DNA of 63,347 nt, filler included, from Reclinomonas americana ATCC 50394 (lineage: Eukaryota): NCBI GenBank assembly GCA_048213135.1. It is 8 parts of 5 records of this genome, joined end to end, with 100 filler letters (N's around TTAATTAATTAA, not from the genome) between each part and the next. Parts side by side here need not be neighbours in the genome. Positions count along the whole stretch, not along the records: positions 31,790 to 38,722 come from PS015430.1; positions 38,823 to 41,287 come from PS015430.1; positions 41,388 to 54,047 come from PS015430.1; 5 more parts are not named here. One strand, written 5' to 3'. The first letter of the stretch is position 1, and each line of letters starts with the position of its first letter. The notes beneath the pieces were generated by a model that did no database searches, had not been told where the DNA came from, and worked only from the letters and a program-made list of their open reading frames with translations. Of the stretch, positions 22,501-63,297 are shown piece after piece. The translations under genes and the position numbers were made by a program.

Positions 22501-22707
22501 AATGCGCTGGCGGTCAGCGCAGGGCGGTTCTACGTTGCCACGCTGGATGACATTTACACGTCGGTGGATGGCGTGCAGTGGACTGATACGAAGGCGTTGC
22601 ATGGGTGGAGCTCGATTAGTGCGAGTGCGGATGGGCGGGTGGTGGTGGGGTGTGAGTTTGGTGGGCAGTGTCATGTTTCTAGGGGGTTGTTGTGTTTGAG
22701 GCCGTGA
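16125..22707 (+). CDS. Extracellular modular protein (5' end not found): Cys-containing Ig-like domains, H-type-lectin-like domains, EGF-like Cys cluster, BNR/Asp-box beta-propeller; apparent frameshift at ~21828
   Basis: Exons ~16125-16336, 16683-16992, 17076-17747, 19268-19726, 21065-21994, 22275-22707. Lectin-like motifs are FTFDHDFYRRPRVLLGL and GFSFQV..VTWTAIG. EGF-like CQAGFFGSDC. Six Asp-boxes (VSTDTGASW, VSRDGGST, VSTDGGASW, VSTDQGATW, VSTDNGATF, TSVDGVQW). Confidence 0.65.
17748..19267. repeat. Purine-rich degenerate minisatellite filling a 1.5-kb intron
   Basis: Recurrent GTGTCTGTGTG..GGAGACAG..GTGAACGGAAAGAGTGAGTGA units; ~100-bp near-duplicate at ~18223-18320 and ~18613-18710. 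Confidence 0.7.
19740..21060. repeat. Pyrimidine-rich (CTTCTC)n-type low-complexity intron
   Basis: Long CT/CTTCTC runs around an N gap; the overlapping long ORFs are artefacts. Confidence 0.8.
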
Positions 22708-23339: not shown

Positions 23340-23412
23340 TGCCTTCCGGCGGGATCGAACCGCCGACCGATGGCTTATTAGACCATTACTCTACCGACTG
23401 AGCTAGGAAGGC
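23340..23412 (-). tRNA. trnI-AAU: tRNA-Ile, anticodon AAU (IAU)
   Basis: Reverse complement GCCTTCC TA GCTC AGTCGGTA GAGT A ATGGT CTAATAA GCCAT CGGTC GGCGG TTCGATC CCGCC GGAAGGC A folds into a full cloverleaf; T-tracts (pol III terminator) lie just downstream. Confidence 0.93.
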
Positions 23413-23595: not shown

Positions 23596-24488
23596 TTACT
23601 CCTTTGCCGCGGCCGCCGCCGGGTTCAGTCCGCTCAGCATCTGCTTGAGCTCGCCTGCAACGCCACACGCACACACACATACACAGTGCGTGAGTGGAGA
23701 GTCCGACACACAAAAAGCAAGCGCAACACACGCACCTGTCTTGTGCAGCGACATCATAATATCGCAGCCGCCAATGAACTCGCCCTTCAGGTACACTTGC
23801 GGGATCGTCGGCCAGTCGCTGCACACCACACATGTCACAACGCATGCGTGCGACGGGTGGCACAGCAACCGCAGCCTGTACGCAACGAATACTTCTTGAC
23901 GCCCTCACGGATCTCACTGTTCTGCAACACATCGTAGGTGACGTACTCGATCTCTGCACGCGCACTCAACGTGGTAAGCGAGAGGAGGACGAGGAGGAGG
24001 GAAGAGGAGGAGCAGCAACTGTACGAGTCGAGGATCTGCACGACGGCGCGACTAAAGCCACACATGGGCTTCTCCGGCGATCCCTTCATAAACAGCACCA
24101 GTGGGTCTGCCTTGACCGCCTGCATCAACAGAAGGAAGGAGGAGTGAGTCGTCGCACGCACAGGAGAGACACAGTGAGAGAGTGATCGCACCTCATCAAT
24201 CTGCTTCTGAATGTCGTCTTCTGACGCCGACGATGATGGCGCCTTGCGGCCAAAGTCAGGATGTGAGCCACTGGAGTCGACAGTGGAGAATGCGCGCAGT
24301 GGCAGCAGACGCGCGAATGACACTGACAAGAGGGCGAGTGAGTCACTGCAGTGACGCATCTCTTTCTCTCTTTCTCAGATGCGCACCTGTTGGTGTGCGG
24401 CTGATGCAGGAGGCAATGCGTTGCTGTGCATATGTGAGCGAGTGAAGCAAGAGAGAGTGAGACGACGACGATCGCTCACCAACAACAT
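23596..24488 (-). CDS. GRX5: Mitochondrial monothiol glutaredoxin (Grx5/GLRX5)
   Basis: Spliced product has an Arg-rich presequence, then [60 protein letters not shown]. Confidence 0.95.
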
Positions 24489-25878: not shown

Positions 25879-26549
25879 TCACTCGCCACTCGGTTCCTTC
25901 GCCTCCTCTGCTTCTTGCGCTTCTCTGCTCGATCGCCTCCTCCGCCTTCCCTCCTTGGCCACCGGCTTCTCTTGCATCGGCGGCTGCTGCGGCTGCTGTG
26001 GCTGCTCCTCTTCCCGCCCCTCAGCACCCGCCTCATCAGCAGGCATCGGATGCCACACGCCACCATACGGATCGCGTCGCACGGGAATCGATCGCACACC
26101 GCCACACTCGGTGCATCGCTGCTCCACGCGCATTGTCTTGCGCTTCCTCGAGCCTGCCCGACAACACACAGGAAACATCAGACACACACACACACACACA
26201 CGCAGCAACTAATGACGAAGCAGCACCTTGCACGCGCACAGTCGACGTGACGCCCGGAATAAGCAGCACCTCACATCGCGCACATATCGATCGTTTCACA
26301 TGTGGATGTCTGCCAGCCCCTCCCCATCAACACACAAGACAGCGAGAGACAGACACATACACATACACACAGAGCACGCAACAATCTGCGCACAAGACGC
26401 GCACACACTCCGCGCATGGTGTGTGTCAGGAAGCGCGAGACACCCACAGTCTTTACACGACCTTGCGATTGCACTCCCATCAGAGTGGCAGCTTGCAGCA
26501 GGAAGTTGCAGCGTAACCATGCCTCGTCGGTGACAGCACGCCCGTTCAT
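25879..26549 (-). CDS. RPP21: RNase P subunit Rpp21/Rpr2
   Basis: WLRCNFLLQAA..SRFLTHTMRGVCARLVRRLHPHVKRSICARCEVLLIPGVTS..QRCTECGGVR, i.e. two CxxC pairs and family motifs; 2 introns. Confidence 0.88.
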
Positions 26550-31689: not shown

Positions 31690-31789
31690 NNNNNNNNNNN
31701 NNNNNNNNNNNNNNNNNNNNNNNNNNNNNNNNNTTAATTAATTAANNNNNNNNNNNNNNNNNNNNNNNNNNNNNNNNNNNNNNNNNNNN
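31690..31789. other. Artificial scaffold linker 44N-TTAATTAATTAA-44N (also at ~38723, 41288, 54048, 58233, 60431, 62009)
   Basis: Identical 100-nt cassette with stop codons in all six frames, 7 occurrences. Confidence 0.95.
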
Positions 31790-31831: not shown

Positions 31832-32545
31832 CTGTGTCACGAAAAGGGAGCTGGGCTGGCCATCGGCCTCGTCCACGGCAAGCTGCAACGCCCTGCACAG
31901 TCATGATACAACACACACATGAGCTCATGCACGTCGCAGACAGAGTGATGAGTGGTATCAAACCCGTAGAATGTCGCCGTGTCAGGATCGCCATCAATGG
32001 GGGCATTCGACATGCTCATGTTGCTGCCGACACCGCCGGTGATGCGGGTGACCTGTCCGTCGGCCACACCCACTTTGCGGATGCGGAAGAAACTGTCGGG
32101 AAAGGGAGGGTGAGGTGGGAGGAGAGACGCAAGGATGGTGGCAGTGGTGGCGACAGTGGCTACGCACGCATTCTCGAGGACGTAGAGGTTGCCGGCCTTG
32201 TCAGACGTGACGGCCTGTGTGTGTGTGCGTGGAGGGGAAAGAAAATTCCGAATTGTAAGTTGGTTTTGTGTGAGGAAAGGCAACTGAGTGCTGCTTGCTG
32301 CGCCACGCAACAGTGGGGAACGCGAACTGTGCAGAAAGAAGCGGACCGTCGCTGCTGCCGTATCCGTTGCTGCCGGCGTAGTAACTCACAGAGGCCTCAA
32401 AGGCCGAGGAGTCGGTGGCAAACTGGATCCAATTCGGCAACTCACTGGCACCACCGCTGTTGTCCACGCTGGCATTCAGCACAGCGGAGACGGGAGTGAT
32501 GGACGAGGCACTGCTGGTGGTCACAGTCACTGCGCCGACAGCTCC
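31832..32545 (-). CDS. Fragment of an FN3-like/NHL module homologous to the modules of the 33717-45296 gene, in the opposite orientation
   Basis: TTSSASSITPVSAVLNASVDN..NWIQF..YAGSNGYGSSDGPLLSAQFAFPT|AVTSDKAGNLYVLEN|FRIRKV..DGDPDTATFY; same intron positions as the + strand modules. Confidence 0.75.
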
Positions 32546-33640
32546 GCAGAGAAGAATTCCTGTATTTGTTTTTCTCATTGAGCGATACATGAACGCAGCC
32601 AGCAACAGCGTGACGAACGAGCAGAGAGGAAACACACCACCACAGAAGCAGAGGGAGGCGAGGGAGGGAGGGACAGCGGCGAGAACGAAATTGAAGCGAT
32701 AGAGCGCGCGAAAACATACGAATCATGCATGTGCAGCAAGAAAAAACACACGAATCTTGCACATTTGTGCAACGGTTGAAAAAAAGATCAAAAGGGACAT
32801 GATTGATTCTCCACTCTGTCACGCTCACGGTCACCCCCACTCTCCCAACACAGCATGATGGTGCCTGCGAAATTCNNNNNNNNNNNNNNNNNNNNNNNNN
32901 NNNNNNNNNNNNNNNNNNNNNNNNNNNNNNNNNNNNNNNNNNNNNNNNNNNNNNNNNNNNNNNNNNNNNNNNNNNNNNNNNNNNNNNNNNNNNNNNNNNN
33001 NNNNNNNNNNNNNNNNNNNNNNNNNNNNNNNNNNNNNNNNNNNNNNNNNNNNNNNNNNNNNNNNNNNNNNNNNNNNNNNNNNNNNNNNNNNNNNNNNNNN
33101 NNNNNNNNNNNNNNNNNNNNNNNNNNNNNNNNNNNNNNNNNNNNNNNNNNNNNNNNNNNNNNNNNNNNNNNNNNNNNNNNNNNNNNNNNNNNNNNNNNNN
33201 NNNNNNNNNNNNNNNNNNNNNNNNNNNNNNNNNNNNNNNNNNNNNNNNNNNNNNNNNNNNNNNNNNNNNNNNNNNNNNNNNNNNNNNNNNNNNNNNNNNN
33301 NNNNNNNNNNNNNNNNNNNNNNNNNNNNNNNNNNNNNNNNNNNNNNNNNNNNNNNNNNNNNNNNNNNNNNNNNNNNNNNNNNNNNNNNNNNNNNNNNNNN
33401 NNNNNNNNNNNNNNNNNNNNNNNNNNNNNNNNNNNNNNNNNNNNNNNNNNNNNNNNNNNNNNNNNNNNNNNNNNNNNNNNNNNNNNNNNNNNNNNNNNNN
33501 NNNNNNNNNNNNNNNNNNNNNNNNNNNNNNNNNNNNNNNNNNNNNNNNNNNNNNNNNNNNNNNNNNNNNNNNNNNNNNNNNNNNNNNNNNNNNNNNNNNN
33601 NNNNNNNNNNNNNNNNNNNNNNACACGTGACGCGCGCGTC

Positions 33641-33677
<37 letters not shown>

Positions 33678-33716
33678 GTTGACATGTTGTTCACTCTCTC
33701 CTTGATGACACGACAG

Positions 33717-36700
33717 CCGCATTGCATTCGCCGCGTTAACCTCAGCGACAGCATGACGACCACGTTGGCTGGCACATACCAAGACAGCACCACCGACTCT
33801 CCGAGCACTCGCTTCTCGTCGCCTTACGGCATTGCTGTGGACTCTGCCACCGGCACTCTCTACGTTGCCGAGAACGGCGCTCACATCATTCGGTGTGTGT
33901 GAGCACGCCCGCATGAATCACATCTCCCCACGACTGACACGCCACTGCTGCTTCTCCCTTGCCTCTCTCCCCCCTCTGCAGTGAACTCAAGCGCGACGGC
34001 TCTGGCGTGGCGGTCACGTGCGGTTCTCGTGGCAACGAAGGCGTTGTTGATGGTGCTTGCGCCTCCGCTGCGCGTTTCTCCCGGCCCACTGCTGTCGCCC
34101 TCGACTCTACCAACCATATTCTCTACGTTGTGTCCTCGAACACCAACTGCGTTGTCAAGATCGATCTCGTCGCCAAGACGTTGTCGCATCTGACTGGACA
34201 GTGCAACAATTACTATCTGGACTCGGTGGAGGAGAAGACCAACGATATCATGGGCTCCTTCCGTTCCATCCAGGGCATTGCCTTGCACCCGAAACTCGAC
34301 TTCCTGTACGCCACCGATGTTGCGCACCGTGTCGCTGGCTGGCTCTCTCCCTCCGATTATGGCAAGCTCTGCTCACGCGTACGCCGCGGTTGTGTTTGCA
34401 TGCAGATTGGCTACCCCACCCTGTGGTCGATCAATGTGGCCTCCGGTGCCACGGGCAGTCACGGCGGCAATGGAGGTGGTGGCGTTATTCGGAATGGTGC
34501 ACTGTCGAGTGTTTACTATGGCTACCTGGTGCGTTCTGCAAGCAGTGAGAGCGTCGCCGCTCTCCTCGTTATCTCTCACGCGTGTGATGTCACTGGTGCA
34601 GTCCGGAATCACCTTCACCGATCAGTACACGGCCTTCTTTACCGGTATGCTTTTTGTGCCTCTCGCCATCTTTGCATGTGCAAGTGTCGTAGGACTTACC
34701 CGGGTCTATTTTTCACGCGCACGCACAGACATGACGTTTAGCGGATACAGCTTCCAGGGAGTCCGCAAGCTCGACTTCATTCCGCTCCGCAAGTCGCCGA
34801 CTCCAGCCACCTCTGCTGCCGACGCGACGACTCCGATTACGCTGGCAGTCACCGGCCTGCAACCGGCCACCACGTACTGGTACCGCGCCGCCTCCTCCAC
34901 CGACGGTAACGTGTTGGTGGCCGCCGGTGATCCAGTCGACTTCACCACTCAGGACTACGGCTCTGCTTCCACCAGCGCGGCCACCTCCGTGACCTCTACC
35001 ACTGCTTCCTTGCACGGCTCTGTCTCCAACAACGTCTCCGCCGCCATGTCCAACTGGTTCCAGCTTGGCCTCAGCGAGACGGACCTGCAGCCGCAGGTGG
35101 ACACCTACGCCGGTGGCTCGCAAGGCTTCGACGACGGCGACCGCTACTCTGCCCAGTTCACCGTGCCGCAGGTGGAGATTTCATCGTTTTTTTCTGTCAA
35201 CTTCCCGCTTTGTGCCTCTCGTCTCACATTTTTATTCGCACGCAGGCCATGGCTGCTGACAAGAGCGGCAATCTGTACGTCCTTGAGCAAGGGTTTGTCT
35301 GCATGTGCCCGCCCACAGTGCTTCCACTTGAACAAGTATTATCAGTCTCACTTTCTACACACTCGCAGCGCGAATCGCGTCCGCAAGGTCAACACCTCGG
35401 ATGGCACCGTGAGTCACTTTGCCGGCTCCAAGTCGGGACAAGGAGGCTTCACCAACGGCGATGCCGAGACGGCTCGTTTCTACAAGTTGCGTGTGACGCG
35501 TCGTCACAAAACCTTCACTGCAGCTGGCTCACTTGCTCGTTCTCACTCCTCGTCGCGCATAGTTTGGTCGGCATTGCTGTTGACGAACCGCAAGACGCTC
35601 CTGGAGCCGTCTACGTGTCGCATGTTGCGTCGGCCTTTTTTGTCCTGCTGTTGCCAACACGAGCTGAACTGAGGGCCGTTGTCATCTGCAGCCGCACGCG
35701 ATCCGTCGCATCGATCTTGCCACCCAGGCCACCACCACGCTGGCGGGTGGTGCGGAGCCCTACAACGGCAACTTTGGTTTCTTCGGAGTGCAGTCGACCA
35801 CTCGCGCCGACATGATGGGTGGCCAGTCTACGACCATCGGGTTCAACACGCCGGGACAACTGGCCATGGACACGGCAGCCGGCACCATCTACGTGGCTGA
35901 GGTCGGCTCCTCGGTTGTCAGGTTTGCACACCGGCGTGTTGCATACAGTGCGTGTACACACAACAGCGTCCTCACTTCGCCTCTGTTCGCCGCAGTGCGC
36001 TGTCGCGTGACGGCACAAAGCAGTCTGTCGTGTGCGGCCAGCGTGGCTCGTCTGGCTACCAGGTGGGCGACTGCACCACTGGTACCATGCTTGGCGGCCT
36101 GCAGGGCATTGCTCTCGATGCAGCCAACCAAGTAATCTACGTCTCTGTCACTGCAAGCTGTGTGCTCCGTATCGACATCGCCACCAGTCGGTCGTACTCG
36201 TTTGCCGGCAACTGCCAGACGTCGCAGCCAGTGGACCCCGAACCCTACTATCCCTTCGTCTTCGACTACGGCTTGAACAGCTCTCCTTTGACGTATGTGC
36301 CGGCGCTCATGATTGCACCCTCTGGCGATTCGCTGCTGGCACTGGATGTTGCGTGGGTCGTCTGCCTGGTTGCAATTGTTCAGCGATAGCAGTGGCTCAT
36401 CATTTTTTGGCACACTCGCTGGCAGATTGGCTACCACGGTATCCATTCCATCAACCTGCGCACCGCGGCCGTTACTACTCTCATCTCGTCGCACGGTGGC
36501 TGCGGCACGCTGAATGGAGCCGCGAGTGCCGCGACCACGTGCACACCGGTTTGTTTGTCCTTTCTTTTCTCCCGCTTCCACTCTCCTCGTTCCATCGTTT
36601 TCATTTCATCTGTGTACAGAGTGGAGGTGTCTTTGTCGACGCCAAGACGGCGTACTTCTCCGATCTCGCTCAGGAGAATGGCGCCATGACCATCCGCAAG

Positions 36701-39700
36701 ATCGACTTCTTGCCCAACCTGTTCCAAGCGGCCCCCAGCACCACCGCTACCGGTGCCACCGTGCAGATTGCACTCGACACCACCGGACTGCTTCCCGCCG
36801 CCACGCACTTTTTCCGTGCTGTCGCCATTGCCGGCAACGCACTCCTGTTCGGCGACACTGAGAGCCTCGCCACCGACAACGAGATCGACATCACCACCAG
36901 TGCGGCCACCAGTGTCGGCAGCACCAGAGCCACACTCCACGGCAACGTGGCCAACAAGGGTGCAAACGTTTCGGCCAATTGGTTCCAGTTGATCAGCAGC
37001 GAAGCGGACAGCTTTACGCCATCCGAGTCCACCTTTGCCGGCAGCGACCCTGGCTATGGCGACGGAGTCAAGGCCGAAGCGCACTTGATTGACCCGCAGG
37101 TGCGTGAGCGCTTTGGGACCTATTCTCTTTTTTTCGTCAACAATTCATCGCCACTCATCGACGTTTGCCGACGCAGGGAATTGCGGCCGACAAGAGCGGC
37201 AACCTGTACGTGGCCGAGCGTGGGTATGTTCTTGCTCATCTTGCCGACTGCCGTTGTTGTTGTTGTTGTTGCACCAGTATGAAAACGCTGATTTCTGCAT
37301 GCCCGTCCCTCAGAGCCCATCGTGTGCGCAAGATTAACAGCGCCAATGGTTTGGTCGTGCACTTTGCTGGATCCTCTGGTGGCCAATCTGGTTTCACTGA
37401 TGGAAGCTCGACGAGTGCGCGCTTCATTGCGTTGCGTCTGCATCGCTGTGCATGTGGGTGTGCGTGTTTGCGTAACTGACTGTTGAATGGATAGACCATT
37501 TGGCGTCGCCGTGGACGAGCCGGCCAACGAGGCCGGCGCTGTCTACGTCACCTGTGTTGCGTTTTCTTTCCCCATCACACCCTCAAGTACACATGTGTGT
37601 TGCTAAATGTAACCCGACCGCAGCAACACGCCGTTCGCCGTGTGTCGCTCGCCGATCAGAGCACCACGACGATTGCTGGAGGCGCCGATGCGTGGGGTCC
37701 GATGGCCAGCGAGGAGAGTGGTCCCAAATTCACGGAGCCACGTGGCATTGTCGTCGACAGCGCTGCCGGCGACCTCTATGTGGCCGAGTACGGAGCAAAC
37801 AGCATTCGGTGTGTGTCGCCCATCAACGCCACCTTGTGCACGCATGTGTGCGCGCCCTCACATCATGTTTGCAGCAAGCTGAAGAAGGACGGAACTGGCG
37901 CTGCCGTGTTCTGCGGCAATCGACTCCTCGGTGGCTATGCCACCGGCGGCTGCTCTTCGACTGCCCGATTCGTGACGCCACAGAGTCTGGCGCTGGACAA
38001 GAGCAAGAACATGCTGTATGTAAGCAGCAACAACTGCGTGCTGCGAGTCGACCTGCAGACTCGTGTGTTGTCGCGTGTCATTGGCCAGTGCACCCAAAGC
38101 GGCATCACCGACGGCAACGCGTACACTGCTATGTTTGCTCAGATCACTTCGATCTTCTTCAGCCCGTCGTCGTACGACGCTCTCTACATCGTCGACGTTG
38201 CGTCTCGTCACCGCACGCTGTTGTGTGCACATAACAGGGAGCTGACGACACGCGTGTTTGTAGGTGGGCTTTGGTGGCGTCCGTCGCGTCAACATGCGCG
38301 CACTGACTGTATCGACCTTTGCTGGTCCAAAGGGCGAAACGGGCGGCAATGACGGCGGCAATGACGGAGGCGGAGGCGGCTGCGAGGGTCCCTTCTGCGG
38401 CTGTGAAGGGCCTTTCTGTGGCTGCCCCGGCCCCATGTGCTTCCTCCCGGGTCCGTGCCCGGGTCCCATGTGCCTGCTGCCACTGGCAGTGGTACGTGCT
38501 CCGCTTGTGTGTGCTCTTCGCCCAACCTTCTGTGCCCTCACTCGCAATGCTGTTTGATGATGTCGATGAGCAGGACGCATCAGCTGCGCCGGTGATCACT
38601 GCCACCTTCCAGGATGTGGTACGTTGGCACACGAGCGCTTGGTTTGCCGTGATGTGTTGTTGTTCTCACAAGCCAGCTGCTGCCTCTCCTTCACTCTCTT
38701 TCTCTCTCTCTCTCTCTCTCTCNNNNNNNNNNNNNNNNNNNNNNNNNNNNNNNNNNNNNNNNNNNNTTAATTAATTAANNNNNNNNNNNNNNNNNNNNNN
38801 NNNNNNNNNNNNNNNNNNNNNNTCTCTCTCTCTCTCTCTGCGTGTCACTCGAACAGCGAATGGGAACATTCTCGGATGCAGCTTCCATGTGGCTGACTGG
38901 TCTGTCAAGAAGTGTCGTGTGCAACAGACTTTTTTCTCTTCGTTTTCTGACAGCTGCTATTGCAGAGTCCAAGGAAGGCAAGTTCATCATCCGCCTGCTC
39001 GACCTGCTCCCGCACCGCGTGCCCGCCGAGCCGACCACGACCTCTGGCGGCTCCACACTTGCGCTTTCCACCACGGCCAATGTCACGCCCGCCACGGCGT
39101 ACACGTTCCGTGCAGCGGTTGTCACTGCCACTAGCTCCGTGTTTGCCGGCGAAGCGGCAACGTTCACCACTGGCCCGCTGTGCGTCGTCACCACTGGCGA
39201 CGCGACTGAAGTCAGCAACTACCGCGCGGTGCTGAACGGCAGCGTGACCAACAATGGCGACGTCAGCACGACCAACTGGTTCCAGGTCGGACAAAAAGAG
39301 ACCGATTTTGTGCCCTCGGTGCAGTCGTTTGCCGGAGCAACCTCTCCCGGCTCCAACGACGGCGTTGGCCGCAATGCCAGGTTCCAAGTGCCACGAGTTG
39401 CGTGCTGTACCCCTCTGCTTCTCTCTCTCCGTGTTTGCGACCTCGTGTTGAGAATGCTTTTGCATCGGGCGTAGGGCATCACTGCCGACAAGAACGGCAA
39501 TCTTTATGTGGCGGAATACGAGTGAGTCGGCAAGCATTTTTCTCGCCTTGTGTTCATGCTTCTCACTTCGTCGCCTGCTGCGCACAACAGTGGTAACCGA
39601 GTGCGCAAGGTCAACACAAACACTGGTGCGGTGACGCACTTTGCTGGCTCGAAGACCGCCGAGTCCGGCTTGGTGGATGGCGACTCGCTGACCGCCCGGT

Positions 39701-42700
39701 TCAATAGGTTTCGCCCGTCACTGCAACTTGCATGTTCATCACCCGCTATCTTCTTGCTCAACTGTGCGCGCCCCCTCGCAGCCCAATTGGAATTGCCATT
39801 GACGAGCCTGCCGAAGGCCCGGCCTACCTTTACGTGACAATGGTGAGTGCACACTGCGGAGCGATAATGGCACGAGGCTGCAGCTCACCACACGGGATTG
39901 TGATATCTACTTGCGCAGCTTCACTGCATTCGCCGCGTGGGAATTGCCGATCAGGCGACCACCACCGTGGCCGGCACTGCGGAGGAGTGGTCTCCGGAGC
40001 CGCAGATAAACATTGACGCATTCAGTGCCACGACCACTGCGCTCTTCTCCAACCCTCGCGGTATTGCCGTCGACGGGGCCAATGGCATTCTGTACGTGGC
40101 AGAGACGAGCTCTCATGTCATTCGGTGCGGTTTCCCACCACTTGGCGTCAAGCATATGCTCCTTGATGATTCGTCTCACAATGTTGTCGTGGCACGTGCA
40201 GATCGCTGAACAAGGACGGCACGAATGTGCAAGTCAAGTGCGGCACTCCTAAACAGAGTGGCGTCACNNNNNNNNNNNNNNNNNNNNCCATGTGGATGAC
40301 TGGTATGTATGTGCGTTTACGCTTCCTCTTGTCCACGAAAGCTCACGGTGTTGTTGCTTGCGTATTGCAGACCTGTCGTACGGTGGCCCGCAAGTCGTGC
40401 GCATGGTGACATTTGTTCCCAGCCGCTTTTCCACTGTCCCAGCCATTGCGGCCCCAGGAAGCTCCTCGGCCACATCGGCCCATGCTTACGGTCTCCAGAA
40501 GAAGACCAAGTACATCTACCGCGCCGTCACGGTCACCTCCGAAAACCAGGTGTTTGGTGGCGAGTTCAAGGAATTCACCACCCCGTTCAACAACGTTGCC
40601 CCGACTGGCATCTCCATCTCGGCCAGCAAGTACGATCCGCCGAGCATGGAGGAGGCCTTGATCGGCACTCTCAGCGCCACTGATCCCGACGAGATGGACT
40701 TTGCCGAGTTCTCGATTGTGCCGAATGATAACGACTTCGACCTGTTCGAGATTGGCGAGGACAACACGCTGTGGCTGGTGGCCGAGGGCGTGACCAAACC
40801 GCGCCTGTTTGTCACCATTCGCGCCACAGACATTGGCGGACTGACGCTCGACGTGACGCTGACCATTGTCGGTGAGTTAGTGCAGTCACTGGATTTTTCG
40901 TTCATTGTTCACCGCTAACCGCAACCGCGTTTTGCAGCCACCAACACTGCTCCGACGGCCATCATTCTGTCGGCATCTGAGTACACTCCGCCGTCGTCGG
41001 GCCCGGCTCTGATTGGCTTGCTGTCTGCTGTCGACCCCGACGTCGGTCAGGATCACTCGTATCAAGTGGTCGGTGGCGTCGATGCGGCTCTGTTCAGCGT
41101 GCGTGAAGTGAACCAGCTGTGGCTCGAGGCCTCTGGAATCACCAAGACCCCGCTCTTTGTCACCATCCGCGCAACGGACACTTCGTCGGGAAGCATCGAC
41201 GGCACTTTTGTGGTTTCTAGTGGTGCGCACGCTCGTGCACGAGATCGTCTCGCTGCTTTTTCTCTCACTGATTTTGTGTGACGTGCTNNNNNNNNNNNNN
41301 NNNNNNNNNNNNNNNNNNNNNNNNNNNNNNNTTAATTAATTAANNNNNNNNNNNNNNNNNNNNNNNNNNNNNNNNNNNNNNNNNNNNCGTGCGCGCGCAG
41401 CGGCTGTGGTTGACGTGTCGGAATTCCGCTCCGACCGCGTCACCCTCACCAGCACCATCTTCCTGCAGTCCAACTCGCTGACAACGGCAGTTTTCGAGAT
41501 CGCGCCTCGCGTCACGTTCGGCGTTGTGCTGCAAAACGACATTATTACTGTGCCTGTCACATCGCCCTCGGCTGGACCGTTCTCTGGCGAAAACACGGCC
41601 ACGATGATTGTGTCGACAAAGGTCGCACTGACGCCGGACACGCAGTACTTTGTGCGCATTCGCTACACCGATGCTGTCGGTCTGAAGTCGGGTGTCGGCA
41701 AACCTACTCGCTTTAGCACGCTGCCGGTTTGCACTGGCGGCTTCTTTGGACCGGAGTGTACCGGTATGTGTGTGTGTGCTTCTCTCTCTCTCTTTCTCTC
41801 TGCTCGTGCTTGGACGTTGCTGATCCGCGAGTGACAGGCGTTGCCGAGTCGGCGACCCCGGTATCGATTGGCCCGTTCGGCAGCTCTGTGCTGACGATTA
41901 CCGGCATTTTCTTGACGCCAACTGGTATGCAGCGTTTGCTGTGCTGGAAGAATGTGATTGCTTCGGTGTGCTCACTGCTGCTGCTGCTGCCACGTGTGCA
42001 CAGACATGAAGTTCGTCACCGTGGCCAAGGAGACGGACTGCGCCAACAAGAAGGACCTCACGTCCACTCTTCCGCTGAGTGCGCCGTCGCAAAATCTCAA
42101 GGATAAGTCCACCCTCACCGTGACCGTCACCACGTCACTGAATTTGATCGGCGCCCGCTTCTACCTCTGTGTGCTGTGCGTTGGTGACACTGTCTCACAG
42201 TTCAGTCGTCTTTGCTCAGGCGATCTCACTCTTTTCTTGTATGCCAAACAGACCCACTCTGTGGTCCGACACGTATTTGCCGGTTGGCGGCGGCGGTATC
42301 TCTGTTGTCGGTGCGTTCACAGAGAAAGGCGTGCGTGCGACTCGCGGTACCTTGCCACTCATTCGTACATCGACCGACCGTAGAGCCTGCCTTTTCGAGC
42401 GTGTCGCCAACTGCAATCACCAACCTGGCCCCCACCAGCCTGTCGCTGGTGGGCACCGCTCTGCCGCTGGTCAACGCCGAAGTTGTCCTCCGCCTGCCAG
42501 GCTCCACCTCGCCGTGCACTCCGGACACGGAGGGTGCCACTCTGGAGAGTAACGTGGCCAATGTCCAGCTGGATCGCTCTGCAGCCATTGACGAGACCGG
42601 CACTGCGGTGACCAAGCTTACACCGCAGCTGGACGCGGTGAAGATGACGCCGCCGGTGTATCCGCAGCTCATTGTGTGTGCCAGGTACACGCCGTACACG

Positions 42701-45296
42701 CTCACTTCCAGCATCGTTACCGACGCGTCGTACACTGACTCGATTTTGTGGTCATTCTCATCGTAGGGTGTCGCCACTTCGTCCATTTATTGCATTGCCG
42801 CAACCCATTGCCATGTCAGGTCTGTGATGCAGTGCACATGTTTCTCGCCGCCGCCCCTGCCACCTTTGCACTCAAATCGTATCACCATCAGCACCTGGTG
42901 TCTCGAGCATGGAACCGTCTTTCGTCCGCCCTGGTGTCCCCACCACGGTGACGCTGAGCGGCAACGGATTCCACCCCGACGACAAATTCTACGTGTACTC
43001 GCGGACGCAGTCCATCGGACCTCGCAGCGACCTGCACCAGCGTGCCGTGCAGGGACTGGTGTCGCTCGCCTCTCTTCGGTGAGTATTGCATTGTTCATGG
43101 CGACGCGAGAGGCGCCAGTGTTCTCATGACGCGACACCGCACCCACACGCAGATCGACTCAAATTCTGTGCGGCGGACAAGTGGTCACCGATCCCACCGA
43201 GTTGCAGCAGACCTTTGTGTCTTCTTCCCAGCAGCAGGTGCAGATTGTGTTGCCGGCCGACACAACTAGCTGGGAGCTGTGCGTGCGACACGCCGGTGCA
43301 CAACAGTTGCCGTCGGGCACCCTGACCGGTTTGAGTGGCGTCGGATTCCAGATTGTCAGTTGAGTTTTTGCCGCGACTTGCAAGCATTTTCTGCATTGTG
43401 CGCGACATTCTCTTTTTACTGACCTTGTCACCACCAACAGCCCCAGTGGTGAATCAGGTCGAGCCGCTGCAAATCAGCGTCGGTAGCTCGATTTCGTTGA
43501 CTGTGCGTGGACCTGCTTTGCGACTGGTCGACACCCCGATGCTGGTGCCGGTGACGAACACATCGACCACCTGCGGTGATGTGCCGCCGTCGGCTGTGCT
43601 CAGTGCCATTACGCCCGTTTCGGGTTCCATGACGCTGACGCAGGTGCCGAATACCTCCGACAGGTACTGCTCACCACCACCACCACCACTACTACCACTG
43701 TCTCTCGTGTAAGATTGCCACCCGCCACTCACCCAAGTGTGACTCCCTCATCAGCAATCTGGTGGAGCTGAATCTGCGCCTCAATGTGCCGACTGCCGGC
43801 CAGTACATTGCCTGTGTGCTGGTGCAGCCCGACACTGGTGGTCGCCGCTCTCTGTACGCCGCCTCCGCCTACATGGCGCAGATGAGACAGAGCTTTGTGA
43901 TCACAGCTACGCCGGCTGTCGTTGTCCCACCCCCCACTGACACCGGTTCCACTTCCGGCTCGTCGTCCACCACACTGAGCGGTGAGCGAGTGAATGAGTG
44001 TGCCTGCGCTCGCTGCGGTGAATAGTGCGCTGAGTTTTGGAGTGCTAACTTGGATTATACGCACAGACAACAAGCGTGCCCTCATTATCGGACTGAGCGT
44101 TGGTCTCGGATCATTGGCGCTCATTCTCTTGGCGTTGTTGGTGTGGTTCCTGGTGGCCCGCCGCCGTCGCCAAGAGCGCGATCGCAAGGGCAGATCCACT
44201 ACTACGACCATTGCTCCGCCTTCGGCGCGTGCAACTCCTCGCCGCGACGAAGAGTCGTGGACCGGTGTGCGTCCGATCGATACGGAAATGGGCGACGCGT
44301 CGCGCACCACCCTGCAGCTCATGTCGCCCGAGTCGGCCACCAACGCTGCCATGGCGGGTTTGCCGACGCAGACGCCGTCTGGCATTCCGCTGCTGGCTCA
44401 AATGTCGGACGCCGAGACGCCGCGTATGGGTGGCACGGGCCCTTACAGCTCGTCCTTCTCCGTGCCTGGTGCAATTGGTGTGTTTGTGTTGGTGTGCTTG
44501 TGTGTTCGTGTCTTCTCTGTATTTACAGTCCGCCGCGCAGCTACGAGCCCCGACGCCACATCGCACGCGCATCTGCCATCGCTGCAGGTGGTACCCACTC
44601 CGTCGGGCGTTCCTCTCCTGTCGCAGCAGCAGTCCTCGTCCAGCGACGTCGACACCCCGGTTGGCGGCGATATGCCGCCCACCACCGCTGGTACGTTGTC
44701 GCGTCAACCAACAAAAGAGAGGCGTCCATCACTCATTTGTTGCCTATTGTGTGTTTGCGTGCGATGAACAGGCTCGTCGGTGGCTGTCACGCTGTCGGAC
44801 GTCGACTTCCTGTCACCGACTGGCATGGGGCTTCTCTCCGACGCCGCTCTCCTTCCGTCGCCGGCCGCTGCACCGATCGTGGTCGGACTCGGTGGCCCGT
44901 CGGCCGAAGAGGCTGCTGACGCCCAGGCGCAGGCTCAGGAGAGTCCTGAACCAGACTCGGAGCACTCACGCGGCGAGTCCGAGACGAGCTCGCCCACGTC
45001 GGGCCACACGGCTGCCGACCAGGGTGCTCGCTGGTTGGAGCTGCCGTGGGGATCTCGCTGGTGTGTGCAACAGGAGGATGGCATGGTCACCGGAGCCATA
45101 CAAGCACTGCAGGAGCTGCCGGAGACCGACTACTTTGGCAGCATCGCGCTGCCGTTGGTGGCTCTTCGCTGGATGCATGTGGACACTCGTGGACGGCTTG
45201 CCGAGCTCGACACATTGATGGACGGTGAGTCAATCGTCTCTCACTCTCTGCGCGTTGCTGGCCTCTCTGACCGATGTTCCCTGTGCAGAGCTTTGA
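33717..45296 (+). CDS. Very large type-I membrane protein: at least 4 FN3-like domains each carrying an NHL beta-propeller, 2 cadherin-like domains, EGF-like motif, several Cys-containing Ig-like domains, TM helix, low-complexity tail (5' end missing)
   Basis: NHL repeats (FSSPYGIAVDSATGTLYVAE, GIAADKSGNLYVAE). FN3 ends (TGLQPATTYWYRA..DFTT). Cadherin-like NVAPTGISIS..GTLSATDPD..IRATDIGGL. CTGGFFGPEC. TM LIIGLSVGLGSLALILLALLVWFLVARRRR at ~44080-44170. Ends MDEL*. Spans two linker gaps. Confidence 0.8.
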
Positions 45297-45410: not shown

Positions 45411-46622
45411 ATGTGTTCACACGAGCTGGTGACGCACGTCGAGGAGTTTGTGCACAAGCAGATGGCTGGCAACGATGCCAGCCACGACTGGGCACACGTG
45501 CATCGTGTTCGTCGCCTGGCACTGACGATTGCGGTGAGCGTGACATACACACTCTCTTCTCTCTCTTTCTTTCTCTTTCTCTCTCTCTCACACACGCACG
45601 CGCATGTGTGTGCATCTCCGACACACAGGAAAACGAGTCTCGGGAGACTGGTGTGCCGGTGGACATGGAACTTGTTGAACTCGGAGCGCTGTTGCATGAT
45701 GTCGGAGATCGCAAGTATGCCTCTGCAGAGTTGCGGGTGTGCGCACGCGCATATGTGTGTGCATGCTTGTCTCTGAGAGAAGCTGACAGAATGGCGGTAT
45801 GTGGTGCAGAGATGAGGATTGCGTGACGCAGGTGAATCGCTTCCTTCGCCAGCATGACTACTCCGAGGCCAAGCTTGAGAAGTTGGCGTTCATCCTGGAG
45901 AATGTGTCGTTCTCGCAGTTGCGTTGCACGTCTCTCTCTCTCTCTCCCTCTTATGTGTGTGAGAGAACAGTCACCTCACATGTCATCATGCAGCGAGGTT
46001 GCCAGTGGCGGCTCACTGACTGTCACGCCAGAGTTGGCGGCGGTGCAGGATGCAGATCGTCTGGATGCTGTTGCGTCGACACTCATTGTTCTGACACGAG
46101 GCGCCTTGACTTACGCAGCCTCCCCGCCTGCGCAGATTGGAGCCGTCGGCATTGCGCGAGTCATGGCGTACTCGGGGCGCAAGGGACGACCGCTGTACGA
46201 GGCCGAGTTCAACTCGAATCCCGACGGCTTCCTCGTCGAGTGCGAGAAGGCACTGGTACGACGCTATGCATCGCCCTCGCCCACCTTCTCGCTTCTCCAC
46301 TCTTCTCCTCCTTTGCCTGCGCACACATCTCACCGACACGCGCAGAACGACCCGATCGACGTGGCGAAGTACAAGGACGCGCAACGGCGCGACTCCAGCA
46401 TCAAGCACTTTTACGAGAAGCTGTTGAAGCTGCGCAGCATGATGAAGACGGCGGCGGGCCGTCGACTGGCCGACGAGCGTCACCGTTTCATGGAGGCGAG
46501 TGTCCAATCTTTCTTTGTTTACGACGGTTTCTGCGCGCGTGTGGTGTGTATCCTCACGCGCCCTCCTCACTGTGCAGCTCTACCTGGACCAATTCTTTGC
46601 GGAGTGGCGAGGCGAGCGCTAA
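45411..46622 (+). CDS. HD-domain metal-dependent phosphohydrolase, YedJ/YpgQ-like
   Basis: DASHDWAHVHRV, ALLHDVGDRKY, VQDADRLDAIGAVGIAR, HFYEKLLKL..MKTAAGRRLADERHRFMELYLDQFFAEW; 6 introns including one GC-AG. Confidence 0.92.
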
Positions 46623-54037: not shown

Positions 54038-54155
54038 TACGTACATTNNNNNNNNNNNNNNNNNNNNNNNNNNNNNNNNNNNNNNNNNNNNTTAATTAAT
54101 TAANNNNNNNNNNNNNNNNNNNNNNNNNNNNNNNNNNNNNNNNNNNNCCACCACG

Positions 54156-55870
54156 TCAGTGATGCCAGGTGTGGAGATGTGAGGGCGGGGGAATCGGGCG
54201 ACGCAACAGCTCCTCGACATGGAATCCCTCGACAAGTTTGCTCTGCGTGTAGATTGGCATGGTCCGCTTGAAGGCGGCGGTGGCGGCGAGATCGGCGTTG
54301 GTCGGGTTGTACACCACATTGCCCGTGTGCGCTACGCATCACACACACATAAAACGAGTGAGCCACACCCCACAGACAGACGCCGGTTTCGCTGTGCACA
54401 GCAGACGCAACGATCAATCGACACCACTTGCGGCAACTCATTAAGTCGCTTCGAGGGCGACCGCCGCGGCAGCGCTTGTTTGTAGTTGGCCAGCTGTACA
54501 GGCGTAGGGACAATGAGCATGACGATCATTGGCATGTCTCTCTCGTTGCATGCACTCACCTCGTTCTTCAACTCTGCCAGCTCCCGTTCCGTCTGCGCCA
54601 GTCGACCACCCATCATGACCATTGCGTCTGGCTCTACAATCCCGCGTGTCAGCACAACGACAATAACACGAAACGGAATGGTGACACAAAGTTAGGCGCA
54701 ACTGACAACCATGATGCCGCCGGGACCCGCCTCTGCTGCCGTGTGCACCACCATGGTCGGTGGCGACGTGGCCACCAAGATGCCGGACTGGTTCAGTGTG
54801 GGTGGCGGGCTGGCCATTGCACCGGTCACCTTCTCCGGACTGGACAGCAGTCGCAGGATGTGCTCCTGTCGCTTCTTCACCGTCTCCAGTGCACCCTCTG
54901 TCTTTTCTCGCAACGTCCTCTCGCGCTCCAGCCGAGTCTCCAGCGCATGCAGACGATTCAGAGTGCCCTCCGACACCTCCGATCCCATCGCTCGCGAACT
55001 AGCCGACGGACCCAAGTCCGAGTACTGATCCAACAGCAGCCTGTCGTGCATCGAGGCCGACGATGAACGCAGGCGCCGTGAACCACGCGATCCAAAGGAG
55101 AGGCGCGAGGCGGCCGACATGCCACCCGACGACATTGGTCTTGGGTGATCGGTGGGTGTTGGTGCCGGCGCTCCTGCACCCTCCCCACTCCGTTCTCCTC
55201 CCATCGGCAACGACAATCGCAGCGCGTTCATCCGTTCGCGCGCCATTTGCTGCGCGACGAGTGAGAAGGGATGCACAGCGGAAGGCGATTCACACGAGAG
55301 CACCACTCGCTCACCTCCTGTGCCATCGCCTCCTGCTGCTGTGCGTGACTCGACAAGAGACCAGCGGCTGTCTGCGGTCGACTGGCGCCCGACAGCGACG
55401 ACATTCGACTGAATCCCGACAAGACCGAGGCGGGCGTCTGCGGTCGGAACGACGAAGCCCGTGACGATGCACCCACCGAAATCAGAGAAGCGCCATCATC
55501 GTGACCACGGTGGTCGTCTTGCTGCTGCTGCTGCTGCTCCTGTTGTGTGTGATCCACACCGCCATCATCACCACCAGTGGCGCTCGCCGAGTCCTGGTGC
55601 GTTGGACTCCCGGCCATCCTATCATACACGTCGCGCGGAAGTCTGCACGGGAAACCCTCAGCATTTTCTCGCGGAGTGGACGTGGTACCACACGCACGCA
55701 ACGTGGCCATGGTCGACTGCAGAATGTGCTGGTGCAGCGGCGTCGAGTTGGACGCGCTGGCATCCATCGACGATTTGACAGCCGGCAGCGGTCTCCACAC
55801 ATGCGTCTTGTTGGGCGACGGCACGCCACCGCCCTTGCGCAGCGGCTGCGGTCGGTTCTAAAAAACACCC
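54156..55870 (-). CDS. Hypothetical coiled-coil/low-complexity protein, 5' end in or near the gap
   Basis: Exons with coiled coils (LNRLHALETRLERERTLREKTEGALE; LAQTERELAELKNE) and an RPQTA motif. Confidence 0.5.
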
Positions 55871-60300: not shown

Positions 60301-60530
60301 CGGCTGAACATCCCTGCTGACGAGAGTGCAAGAGAGTGCGTACGACCCTCACAGGCACCACAAGAGCCGGATGAATCGCAAACAATGCTGCCGCCGAACA
60401 GCAGAAACCAACAATCACGACAAAAAGCCCNNNNNNNNNNNNNNNNNNNNNNNNNNNNNNNNNNNNNNNNNNNNTTAATTAATTAANNNNNNNNNNNNNN
60501 NNNNNNNNNNNNNNNNNNNNNNNNNNNNNN

Positions 60531-63297
60531 TGTGGCCGGTCAGCGCGGTGCTGCTCGTCGCATGTCGTTCAACCCGCTGTCGCCGACGCTGTTGGTGATG
60601 GAGAGACGGCAGGATGGCGCGACGATGGTGATCAATCCGCAGCAGCTGAGTGGAGCGGTGCGCGAGGCTGGGGTGACGGTGGCAGGCGGTGTGTTGCAGG
60701 TGGATGGAGTGGCCAGCACGCCTGGCGATGTGTGTGTGGCGCTGCCGGGCGATGCTGTGGCGTTTGTGCGCAAGGCGAGCTCGACGGCGTACCTGGCGTC
60801 GCTGGGCGAGTCGCCACCGACGCTGCAGGTGGTGTACGAGAGCTCGGGCGATCCGCCGGTGCTGGTGGCCGGCAGTGCGACGCTGGTGGCTGTGGGTCTT
60901 GAGTTGTGTGCAGTCCATTAGCCAATGCAGTGTGTGCGCACGAGTTGTTGCTGACTCATTCTGTGCAGATCGGGTGCGGTGCTGATCTACAATCGTGCAT
61001 CGCTCGCGGATACGACGTTGAGAATAGCGGTCGACGGTGACGACGAACGCAACGGTGGCGTTGTGTCGCTGGCGGTGCTCCCGGGCGACATTGTGGTGGC
61101 GTCGCAAGGCCTCACCGAGGCGCAGCTCAACGATCAGTTTGACGCCGAGGACTTTGATCCGAAGCTGCTGGTGGCCGCCGTGCCTCCGCCTGCAGCGGTG
61201 CGTGCATGCCTTCTGATCTTGTTCATCTCGTCTCGCCACTGACCGCCGTGCTGGGCCTTGTCGGAACGCAGTGGGCGGGCATCGGTCATCGGTTGCAGGC
61301 GAAATCGCTGCTGGTGTGCATGGGTGACGATTACGAAACGCCAATGCCACAGAAAGTGTTCAGTGTGTGTTCTCTCGGGCACATTGGTTCCAGGTTTGCA
61401 TCAGTGTTCTCGCCTTGTGTGCCGAGCACGCATGAAAGCTCAATGTGGTATCACAGATTCTTTTGCCTGGCCGCGTCCAACTGGTCGTTCAAGCTGCGCG
61501 CGTTCGAGGTGGACGTGACCGCCGGCCGCGGTGATGCCGCCAAGATAGAAAGCACCGTGGTGGACGAGACTGGCGAGTGCAAAGTGCGCAAGGAGACCGC
61601 CTTTGTGGAGCTGTTCCCTGACGATCAGAGCCCGCCGCTGGCGGCGTTGTCGGTGTGCTTGGACACGTCGGGCCTCGCGCAGCCGCTGCAGGCCACCAAT
61701 CGCGACGGCGAAACGATCGAGTGGCAGGGTCATGCCGTGGTCGCGCTGCTGTCGTCGTACGGTCACGTGTACGTCAACCGCTTCACGCACGCCACGGCGG
61801 CCATTGATGCGCCGCTGGTGGGTGTGCCACGCGCAGTCGCCACTGGCGCACTGGCGGATCCCGCGAAACTCGGTCCACTGCAAGTCGGCGCCTCCGGCAG
61901 TGCACCGAAAATAGTGCCGTCGACTCCAGAAAAGGTGCCGTCGACCGTGACTGCCGGAGCGCCATCGGCGCCACTGTCGTCTGGTCCACCCACCACTGCT
62001 ATTGAGGTNNNNNNNNNNNNNNNNNNNNNNNNNNNNNNNNNNNNNNNNNNNNTTAATTAATTAANNNNNNNNNNNNNNNNNNNNNNNNNNNNNNNNNNNN
62101 NNNNNNNNGGTGGCTGTTGCGTACCACGCACACCCTGTCCATGTCACACGCCGGTTGTTGACTATTCTCGTACTTCACAATGCACAGTGTCTCCACCCGC
62201 CTTGTCACCCGGAGCCCCGCCTCCACCGCCACCCCCACCGCCTCCACCTGCACCACCACCACCGCCACCACCGCCACCGGGTGGTCGCTCGGCGGCTGCG
62301 CCATACACCGGTCCGAATGTCAAGGCGCTGCACTGGGAGACGATTCCGGAGCACTTGCTGCAGCAGACGATTTTCCACCAGCAGCCGGCATCCGACATTG
62401 CGGTCGATGCGGAGAAGGTGCTCAAGATGTTCGAGATTCGGCCGTCCGGCAAGACAGTCGACGCCGACAAGCCTGTGGAGACGGGCCCGCGGCGTCTGCT
62501 GGAGCTGCGCCGTGTCAACAACATTGAGATCACCCTCCGACACGCCAAGTTGTCGATCGAGGCAATTGTGGAGGGCGTTATGGAGTTCGATATGGAGCGT
62601 GTGAGTTCTGAGTTGTTGGAGAAGCTGCGGAGTTGCTTGCCGACCACGGAGGAGCGCGATGTGTTGGAGGCCTACCGAGGAGCCAAGTTCGTGTTGTGTT
62701 TGCGTCGCAGACTTCACACCTGCTGTTGTGTGCTAAACGCAACGCGCTGTTTGTGTACGCAGAGCCGATTTGGGAATGGCGGAGCGATTCCAGTTGGAGA
62801 CCATCAAGGTGCCGCGCTTCAACAAGAAGATCGAGGTGTTTATCGCTGCGACCGGCTTCCGGGAGCTGTCAATTGAGGTTCGCGAGCGAATGGAGCGCAT
62901 CGGCGCCGCCTTCTCGGCGGTCGGTTCCTCGCTGCGATTGCGTCGTGTGCTGCAGCTGGTGTTGGAGATTGGCAACATTCTCAACCGCGGCAAGGCCAAG
63001 GGTAACGCCAAGGGCTTCCGTATGGACATTTTGACCAAGCTGAAGAACACCAAGACCACGGATCAGCGCATGGACCTGCTCGAGTTCCTCGCACTGACCG
63101 TGGTGCAGGATCCGCGCAATGAGGACTTGCGCGATCTCGACACCGACCTGGCGTGTGTCCATGTGGTGCCGGTGATTACGGTGGATGCTGTCAGGGCGCA
63201 GGTGGAAGAGTTGAGGAAGAACGTGCTGGCGATGGAGTCGGAATGCAATGCTTGTGCGCTGGACGCCAATGCCGAGCGGTTCCATCTGCGGTTAACG
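60531..63297 (+). CDS. Formin (FH1 polyproline + FH2), with a beta-rich N-terminal region across a linker; runs off both ends
   Basis: PPPPPPPP FH1 at ~62215-62280. FH2 motifs: VKALHWETIP, LLELRRVNNIEITL, LPTTEE, AERF..VPR, LQLVLEIGNILN..AKGFRMDILTKLKNTKT..LLEFL. Confidence 0.9.

Follow-up and report, generated by a model that had tools for sequence, protein, structure and literature searches.

A second class of introns can stand alongside the major one within a genome, as U12-type introns do, and U12-type introns can convert to the major class during evolution. Noncanonical registers of U1 at the 5′ splice site have so far been demonstrated chiefly with reporter constructs, for a small fraction of human sites. 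In human shifted-register sites (Roca and Krainer 2009, as summarized in PMC4856993), the U1 pairs are moved one position, with the first intron G (G+1) in the place of the last exon G (the −1 G) and the cut staying at GU. According to that summary, both shifted and bulged registers have been validated in human cells, and the validated noncanonical registers together make up ~1.5% of human 5′ splice sites. Here we describe a stretch of 63,347 nucleotides (nt; N filler included; hereafter the window) from the genome of the protist Reclinomonas americana ATCC 50394 (GenBank assembly GCA_048213135.1), in which about a fifth of the introns (20/94) have donors whose consensus is displaced from the cut by one extra T (S donors). 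By analogy, this class looks like a natural, large-scale use of the one-base-shifted splice-site reading otherwise known from rare human sites. New relative to those sites are the scale (about a fifth vs. ~1.5%), a tight consensus of its own (GTTGCGT), the complete lack of a −1 G, and interconversion with ordinary donors at homologous positions; the register of S donors is here deduced from sequence, the sole source of all results below, which apply to this 63 kb window.

Donors in the window, which is eukaryotic, ~57% G+C and dense in genes with many short introns (~60–120 nt), fall at the sequence level into two classes. Ordinary donors follow G|GTG(T/C/A)GT, where the bar marks the cut, and donors of the second class follow H|GTTG(C>T>A)GT, with the consensus one base further from the cut behind the extra T. 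S donors lack the strong preference of other donors for G at the last exon base (position −1): in the final intron list, G occupies it in 0/20 S donors (A 8, T 8, C 4) and in 53/71 other donors (Fisher’s exact test, P = 5e-10). The covariation of the −1 base with donor class that had been predicted from 13 donors at homologous positions (0/6 S vs. 6/7 others with G; Fisher P = 0.0047) thus extends across the window.

Introns were called with our own Viterbi gene finder, which scores codon log-odds, requires GT/AG and applies matrices for donors and acceptors built from intron positions only; the −1 base is absent from its signal model. Without signals the finder skipped small exons, and a self-trained version over-predicted (261 introns, both strands), so we kept the better-scoring strand at each locus and applied a quality filter (introns of 40–140 nt, flanking exons of at least 40 nt with positive coding score; 87/180 kept). 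In this unedited set, with S defined as GTTG[ACT]G[TC], the −1 base is G in 0/16 S donors vs. 48/67 others (4 ambiguous GTTG donors left out; Fisher P = 8e-8). Corrections by hand from paralogy or homology (for example, 34645 for 34678, 38492 for 38509, and the read-through at 46070) and the addition of homology-supported introns gave the final 94, of which 60 are predictions only, 26 are supported by paralogues and 8 by homologues or Pfam; there S is defined as GTTG[ACT]G. The homology- or paralogy-supported subset gives 0/14 S vs. 16/18, and introns outside the repeat units described below give 0/11 S vs. 37/54 (P = 2e-5). Independently of gene models, GTTGCGT occurs 23 times in the window vs. 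13.4 ± 3.4 in shuffles (0/100 shuffles reach 23), and 0/23 are preceded by G. Among GTTG[ACT]GT sites on both strands, 1/52 follows a G, and that site (34388) lies inside an intron (34319–34405).

Conserved proteins indicate that S donors are used. The three exons of a glutaredoxin gene on the minus strand correspond to positions 2–21, 24–44 and 46–60 of the PF00462 profile, so exactly one split codon falls at each junction, A|GTTGCTGCT (24019) and C|GTTGCGTAC (23886). In an HD-domain phosphohydrolase gene, 4/4 of the BLAST alignments shown have an exact 22-residue gap at 46070–46135, reading DRLDA|IGAVGIAR or DRLDA|MGAIGVAR across the junction. Aligned with 9 homologues, the spliced HD model is gapless at the 45918 and 46070 junctions, and the sole nearby gap, a short one ~four residues beyond the 45730 junction, falls within sequence that is variable. 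In an RNase P Rpr2 subunit gene, the exon downstream of the 26382–26310 intron matches Pfam Rpr2 from its first residue onward. Judged by this conservation, S donors belong to real GT–AG introns, whose predicted removal restores conserved glutaredoxin, HD-domain and Rpr2 sequence to the residue, in agreement with the original prediction that the shifted class is functional. The paralogue alignment supports nine further S donors. All 20 S introns begin with GT and end with AG (16 CAG, 4 TAG). Moving the cut one base downstream (G|TTGCGT...AGN) would put G at −1 in every case. We rejected this alternative because the base that follows AG is not constant (A 11, C 5, G 3, T 1) and because the GT–AG cut yields DRLDA|IGA, with the isoleucine of 3/4 homologues (the fourth has M), where the later cut gives V. 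One GTTGCGT at 30372 (−), after ...NGSLMRAT in an ADP-ribosylglycohydrolase-like gene, gave no frame-consistent model as a donor, Pfam being no help there at exon level, and was not counted.

These data bear on whether GTTGCGT sites might not be true donors at all, the pattern being produced by the gene models or by the paralogy of one gene. Such an artefact would draw on the fact that 60/94 introns are our own gene-finder calls, that the finder erred at several sites, and that 9/20 S donors have an ancestry in common as paralogues. The finder’s errors were fixed by hand with the −1 base known, and cut sites rest on the GT–AG rule and protein conservation. An artefact is contradicted by the residue-exact agreement in glutaredoxin, the HD domain and Rpr2, by the model-free count, in which the single G-preceded site is intronic, and by the persistence of the pattern outside the repeat units. 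We regard this explanation as largely refuted and very improbable.

Introns at homologous positions suggest that donor class can change in place. One very large gene on the plus strand (33.6 kb to ~44.7 kb) opens with repeated ~2 kb units, starting near 33717, 35692, 37624 and 39919, whose exons match NHL repeats in Pfam and give weak matches to its Fn3-like PhoD_N and Pur_ac_phosph_N families. Exon models of the units were built by hand with paralogy as a guide, and the spliced sequences are open reading frames (ORFs) alignable to one another. In a MAFFT alignment, introns i5 (after xFxxPx), i6 (after LYVxExx) and i7 (after ARF/ATF, ARFxx) each keep one column and one phase across units 1, 2 and 3 and a minus-strand paralogue; i8 (after VYVxx), in phase 0, closes each unit. 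Positional homology had been assumed in the original prediction and holds here, and all 13 donor strings quoted there are found where it placed them (for i5, i7 and i8, see Table 1), two of them being only partly checkable: a further VYVxx donor at 33627 (CAC|GTGACG) is preceded by an N gap that leaves no more than 3 exon bases to read, and the acceptor of the 31831 (−) donor lies in a gap. At i5, i7 and i8, units 1 and 2 are ordinary, S and S, respectively, and unit 3 and the paralogue are S, ordinary and ordinary. Two further positions were not part of that prediction: i2 is S in all three units, and i6 is ordinary in 4/4 units, including 2/4 without a −1 G (CGA|GTGAGT at 39522 and TGC|GTGCGT at 32167 (−)), both of which carry a perfect core.

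Pairwise identities (units 1–2, 0.49; 1–3, 0.45; 2–3, 0.44; paralogue vs. units 1–3, 0.35–0.40) suggest a tree in which units 1 and 2 group together, then unit 3, with the paralogue outside. When the tree is rooted on the paralogue, the most parsimonious history has i5 passing from S to ordinary and i7 and i8 from ordinary to S, each with the matching change at −1, so change runs both ways. If these introns are homologous, as column and phase indicate, the alignment shows introns changing class in place; from three positions in four paralogous units, we infer that an intron could pass between classes without moving, because a single intronic T and a single exon base are all that separates the classes. 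The switches are three events, not thirteen, and the order of the changes is not given by the data. The original prediction saw here compensatory evolution, with loss of the −1 G offset by a shift of the intronic consensus: the switching of class in place stands, while the causal order is not established, changes having gone both ways. Nor is the shift established as the sole compensation, since ordinary donors can meet the lack of a −1 G with a better core. Among non-S donors, an exon-side/intron-side trade-off is visible, with a perfect GTG[AC]GT core in 8/14 of those without a −1 G vs. 12/52 of the rest (P = 0.02).

The S class has a distinct and restricted anatomy at the donor. The extra base is only ever T: 16/52 GTTG[ACT]GT sites are donors, vs. 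0/121 with C, A or G in its place (0/40 GTCG, 0/9 GTAG and 0/72 GTGG[ACT]GT sites). Positions downstream follow the ordinary profile displaced by one base, and the S core is tighter than the ordinary core, with C at +5 in 16/20 S donors (7/11 outside the repeat units) vs. 17/59 at the matching +4 of ordinary donors (P = 1e-4). A is enriched at −1 (8/20 vs. a 20% background, P = 0.03). Away from the donor the classes are alike. Median intron length is 75 nt in S and 76 nt in ordinary introns, and within 50 nt of the 3′ end, 12/20 S introns and 41/66 ordinary introns contain a branch-site-like CT[ACG]A[CT], a motif that we picked by inspecting these introns, compared with 22/94 exon controls. 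By these features, S and ordinary introns appear to share their 3′ machinery. The S class is like U12-type introns in being a second class alongside the major one, and unlike them in its branch-site-like motif and length, which are those of ordinary introns, and in its donors, 0/94 in the whole list matching the U12-type [AG]TATCC.

We propose that S sites are probably read by U1 one base out of register, with the first G of the intron in place of the last G of the exon. G+1 would then pair where the exon −1 G normally pairs, T+2 would be mismatched, and TGCGT (TGNGT) would pair as positions +2 to +6 of an ordinary site; cleavage would still fall at GT, through later steps. With G+1 in the pairing place of the −1 G, the last exon base would be freed from selective preference for G. 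The arrangement is like that of human shifted-register sites as PMC4856993 outlines them, in which GU is followed by U and the rest of the consensus is displaced by one base. We favor a shift over a free bulge because T is the only extra base, the −1 G preference is absent, and A, which in the shifted register would pair with the next U1 base, is enriched at −1.

Several results weigh against this proposal, in addition to the reliance on predicted introns discussed above. G is generally rare before GTTG in the window (88/683, 12.9%), and against this local background 0/20 gives only P = 0.06, although the pattern-level count of 1/52 gives P = 0.007; the lack of the G preference is thus firmly shown, and its active avoidance in S donors is suggested and marginal. 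As to the predicted switching “in step,” the three switches with matching −1 changes are found as described, and their independence is not established, as all three can lie on the single branch to units 1 and 2. Pair counts were made with the generic 5′ end of U1, which may not be that of the host: S donors reach 4.5 pairs in the canonical register and 6.6 once shifted, a difference that by itself favors the shift, and ordinary donors reach 7.7 in the canonical. The canonical U1 hexamer is quoted in passages of the preprint 10.1101/2022.06.08.495308. These counts do not separate the shift (6.6) from a bulge (6.95). By nearest-neighbor calculation with the same generic U1, S duplexes are weak in any register (mean −1.3 vs. 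−6.3 kcal/mol for ordinary donors), and the preference for C at +5 is unexplained by standard U1 pairing. The bulge score, the weak energies and C at +5 together keep an altered or additional U1 alive as a rival.

In the bulged alternative, U1 would sit in its normal register, with G+1 and one T paired, the other T bulged and the remaining consensus paired beyond it, as in the human “bulge +2/+3” register (Roca et al. 2012, as treated in PMC4856993). This also fits the sequences, with a slightly higher count of generic-U1 pairs, and the human register, a bulged U beside an identical U, is a validated one in that treatment and likewise tolerates an extra U after GU. A bulge, however, would leave the exon-side pairs in place, as the human register does, and a −1 G would still pair and be favored as in ordinary donors, yet none of the S donors has one. 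Bulges of C, A or G at +3 would also be expected, and sites of that form are never donors, although the degenerate-U argument weakens this point. We consider a bulge quite unlikely.

A second alternative is that GUUGCGU is recognized by a dedicated reader, whether an altered U1 5′ end, a second U1 variant or a protein factor, which would give two donor codes within one U2-type system. S donors are held to a narrower motif than ordinary donors, S sites pair poorly with generic U1 in every register, and U1 5′ ends have co-evolved with atypical donors in Entamoeba and Mastigamoeba, according to passages of 10.1101/2022.06.08.495308. In the same passages, by contrast, other lineages that have C or U at +4 are described as having a standard U1, and the preference for C in part reflects the shared ancestry of paralogous introns, being 7/11 outside the units. 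An Rfam scan of the window returned a tRNA as its sole match, and no U1 gene or other small nuclear RNA (snRNA). A dedicated reader is in our view possible though unlikely. To a broader formulation, in which one major-type spliceosome serves two parallel donor codes, G|GTGNGT and a dedicated H|GTTGCGT, by way of a second U1 variant or an obligatory shift that excludes a −1 G, and introns move freely between the codes by one indel and one substitution, we likewise give a low but real chance.

Other described systems share single features with the S class. In passages of the LUC7 study (PMC11842720), left- and right-handed 5′ splice-site classes trade exon-side against intron-side matching to U1; the counterpart of handedness in the window is the perfect core of non-S donors lacking a −1 G, together with a third donor flavor, G|GTTTG(T/C/A) or GTTTCG, in which the −1 base is G in 7/7. 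Handedness operates in one register, unlike the S class, which adds a displacement of one base. Entamoeba and Mastigamoeba, as presented in parts of 10.1101/2022.06.08.495308, likewise have a lineage-specific donor starting GUU (GUUUGU in Entamoeba, which the core of the third flavor resembles), and this makes it possible that an snRNA rather than a register accounts for the S motif. Those lineages differ in being intron-poor with one near-universal consensus, whereas here two classes coexist in an intron-rich genome. Our literature search found, among the titles listed, no description of such a protist donor class; most subscription journals lay outside its coverage, and a prior description is possible.

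If the shifted reading is correct, ~20% of introns with a displaced donor and an exon-side rule of their own would constitute a natural experiment on 5′ splice-site definition, and could show the uncoupling of U1 binding from cut-site choice and the drift of introns between recognition modes. If two codes are in use, the arrangement would be a natural parallel, across a whole genome, to the U2/U12 duality, confined to the 5′ splice site. For annotation, a gene finder that has learned one donor matrix will miscall S introns: the 66-nt HD-gene intron at 46070–46135, stop-free and in frame, is read through by ORF-based or naive models, including the finder used here.

Table 1. Coordinates of repeat units, donors, S introns and gaps in the window. 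i1–i8 number the introns of a repeat unit; (S) marks extra-T donors.
Feature	Position	Strand	Donors or junctions	Support or remark
Repeat unit 1, NHL/Fn3-like protein gene, 8 exons	33717..35623	+	i1 33893 TCG|GTGTGT; i2 34319 GAT|GTTGCGC (S); i3 34529 CTG|GTGCGT; i4 34645 CCG|GTATGC; i5 35172 CAG|GTGGAG; i6 35293 AGG|GTTTGT; i7 35486 CAA|GTTGCGT (S); i8 35624 CAT|GTTGCGT (S)	Open spliced ORF, unit alignment, NHL and PhoD_N/Pur_ac_phosph_N Pfam matches
Repeat unit 2, 7 exons, no i4	35692..37555	+	i1 35922 CAG|GTTTGC; i2 36348 GAT|GTTGCGT (S); i3 36549 CCG|GTTTGT; i5 37100 CAG|GTGCGT; i6 37224 TGG|GTATGT; i7 37431 TGC|GTTGCGT (S); i8 37556 TGT|GTTGCGT (S)	Open ORF and unit alignment
Repeat unit 3, N gap 38723-38822 inside	37624..39842	+	i1 37809 TCG|GTGTGT; i2 38197 GAC|GTTGCGT (S); i3 38492 GTG|GTACGT; i4 38619 GTG|GTACGT (by eye); i5 39397 CGA|GTTGCGT (S); i6 39522 CGA|GTGAGT; i7 39708 TAG|GTTTCG; i8 39843 ATG|GTGAGT	Open ORF and unit alignment
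Repeat unit 4, start, cut by N gap	39919..40267	+	40125 TCG|GTGCGG	NHL match
Paralogous unit fragment	31832..32529	-	i5 32311 ACT|GTTGCGT (S); i6 32167 TGC|GTGCGT; i7 31963 CGG|GTTTGA; i8 31831 CAG|GTGACG	Introns in the columns and phases of units 1-3, to which it is 35-40% identical
Monothiol glutaredoxin introns	23819..24019	-	24019-23954 ACA|GTTGCTG (S-like); 23886-23819 TTC|GTTGCGT (S)	Pfam
HD-domain phosphohydrolase gene, S intron	46070..46135	+	GCT|GTTGCGT ... GCGCAG|ATT	66 nt, in frame, stop-free
HD gene, two more S introns	45730..45993	+	45730-45809 AGA|GTTGCGG; 45918-45993 GCA|GTTGCGT	Homologue alignment
RNase P Rpr2 subunit gene, probable S intron	26310..26382	-	ATT|GTTGCGT ... TGGCAG|A	Frame-consistent; Pfam
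Giant gene, C-terminal part, predicted S intron	43359..43440	+	TCA|GTTGAGT	Gene finder, strong-scoring coding flanks; no homology support
Predicted S donors	54628..55702	-	55702 CAC|GTTGCGT; 54702 TCA|GTTGCGC; 54411 ATC|GTTGCGT (lower confidence)	Gene finder only
Predicted S donors	60903..62762	+	60903 TGA|GTTGTGT; 62693 CGT|GTTGTGT	Gene finder only
Third-flavor donors	35293, 35922, 36549, 39708	+		
Third-flavor donors	31963, 31065, 10549	-		
Linker gaps (44 N + TTAATTAATTAA + 44 N)	31690-31789, 38723-38822, 41288-41387, 54048-54147, 58233-58332, 60431-60530, 62009-62108			

Acceptors and intron content vary in further ways. TAG acceptors are commoner in S introns (4/20 vs. 1/71 others; Fisher P = 0.008); the four, at 35562, 37494, 38263 and 39474, include two that are paralogous (i7 of units 1 and 2). 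The i4 position is occupied in units 1 and 3 (34645–34728 and 38619 onward), and in unit 2 the exon 36620–37099 is uninterrupted, a case of tandem units within one gene differing by an intron lost or gained.

The window is broken by many N gaps, into which several exons and acceptors of the studied genes fall. Eleven of the gaps consist of 44 N, TTAATTAATTAA and 44 N, and these are a stop-in-all-frames linker at joins between contigs; in the part of the window that was read, (CT)n or (GA)n microsatellites flank them. Protein database queries with a Fn3-like exon, the HD ORF and a 732-aa beta-helix ORF returned no near-identical protein, the best HD matches being at 35–37% identity, and metagenome contigs queried with the alignment of exon e2 gave 209 pattern matches and 0 relatives. 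Pfam matches were few among the 150/371 ORFs of at least 90 aa that were scanned (window 1–29 kb). The interval 20249–22700 (+), called by the finder as a 534-aa gene, is CT-rich, of low complexity and strongly strand-skewed (GC skew −0.31, AT skew −0.45); Pfam does not support it, and whether it codes for protein is doubtful. The tRNA gene (23340–23412, −) lies just downstream of the glutaredoxin gene. Exon e3 of unit 3 carries a Gly/Cys/Pro-rich insert (GGCEGPFCGCEGPFCGCPGPMCFLPGPCPGPMC...; 38330–38480) that is absent from units 1 and 2.

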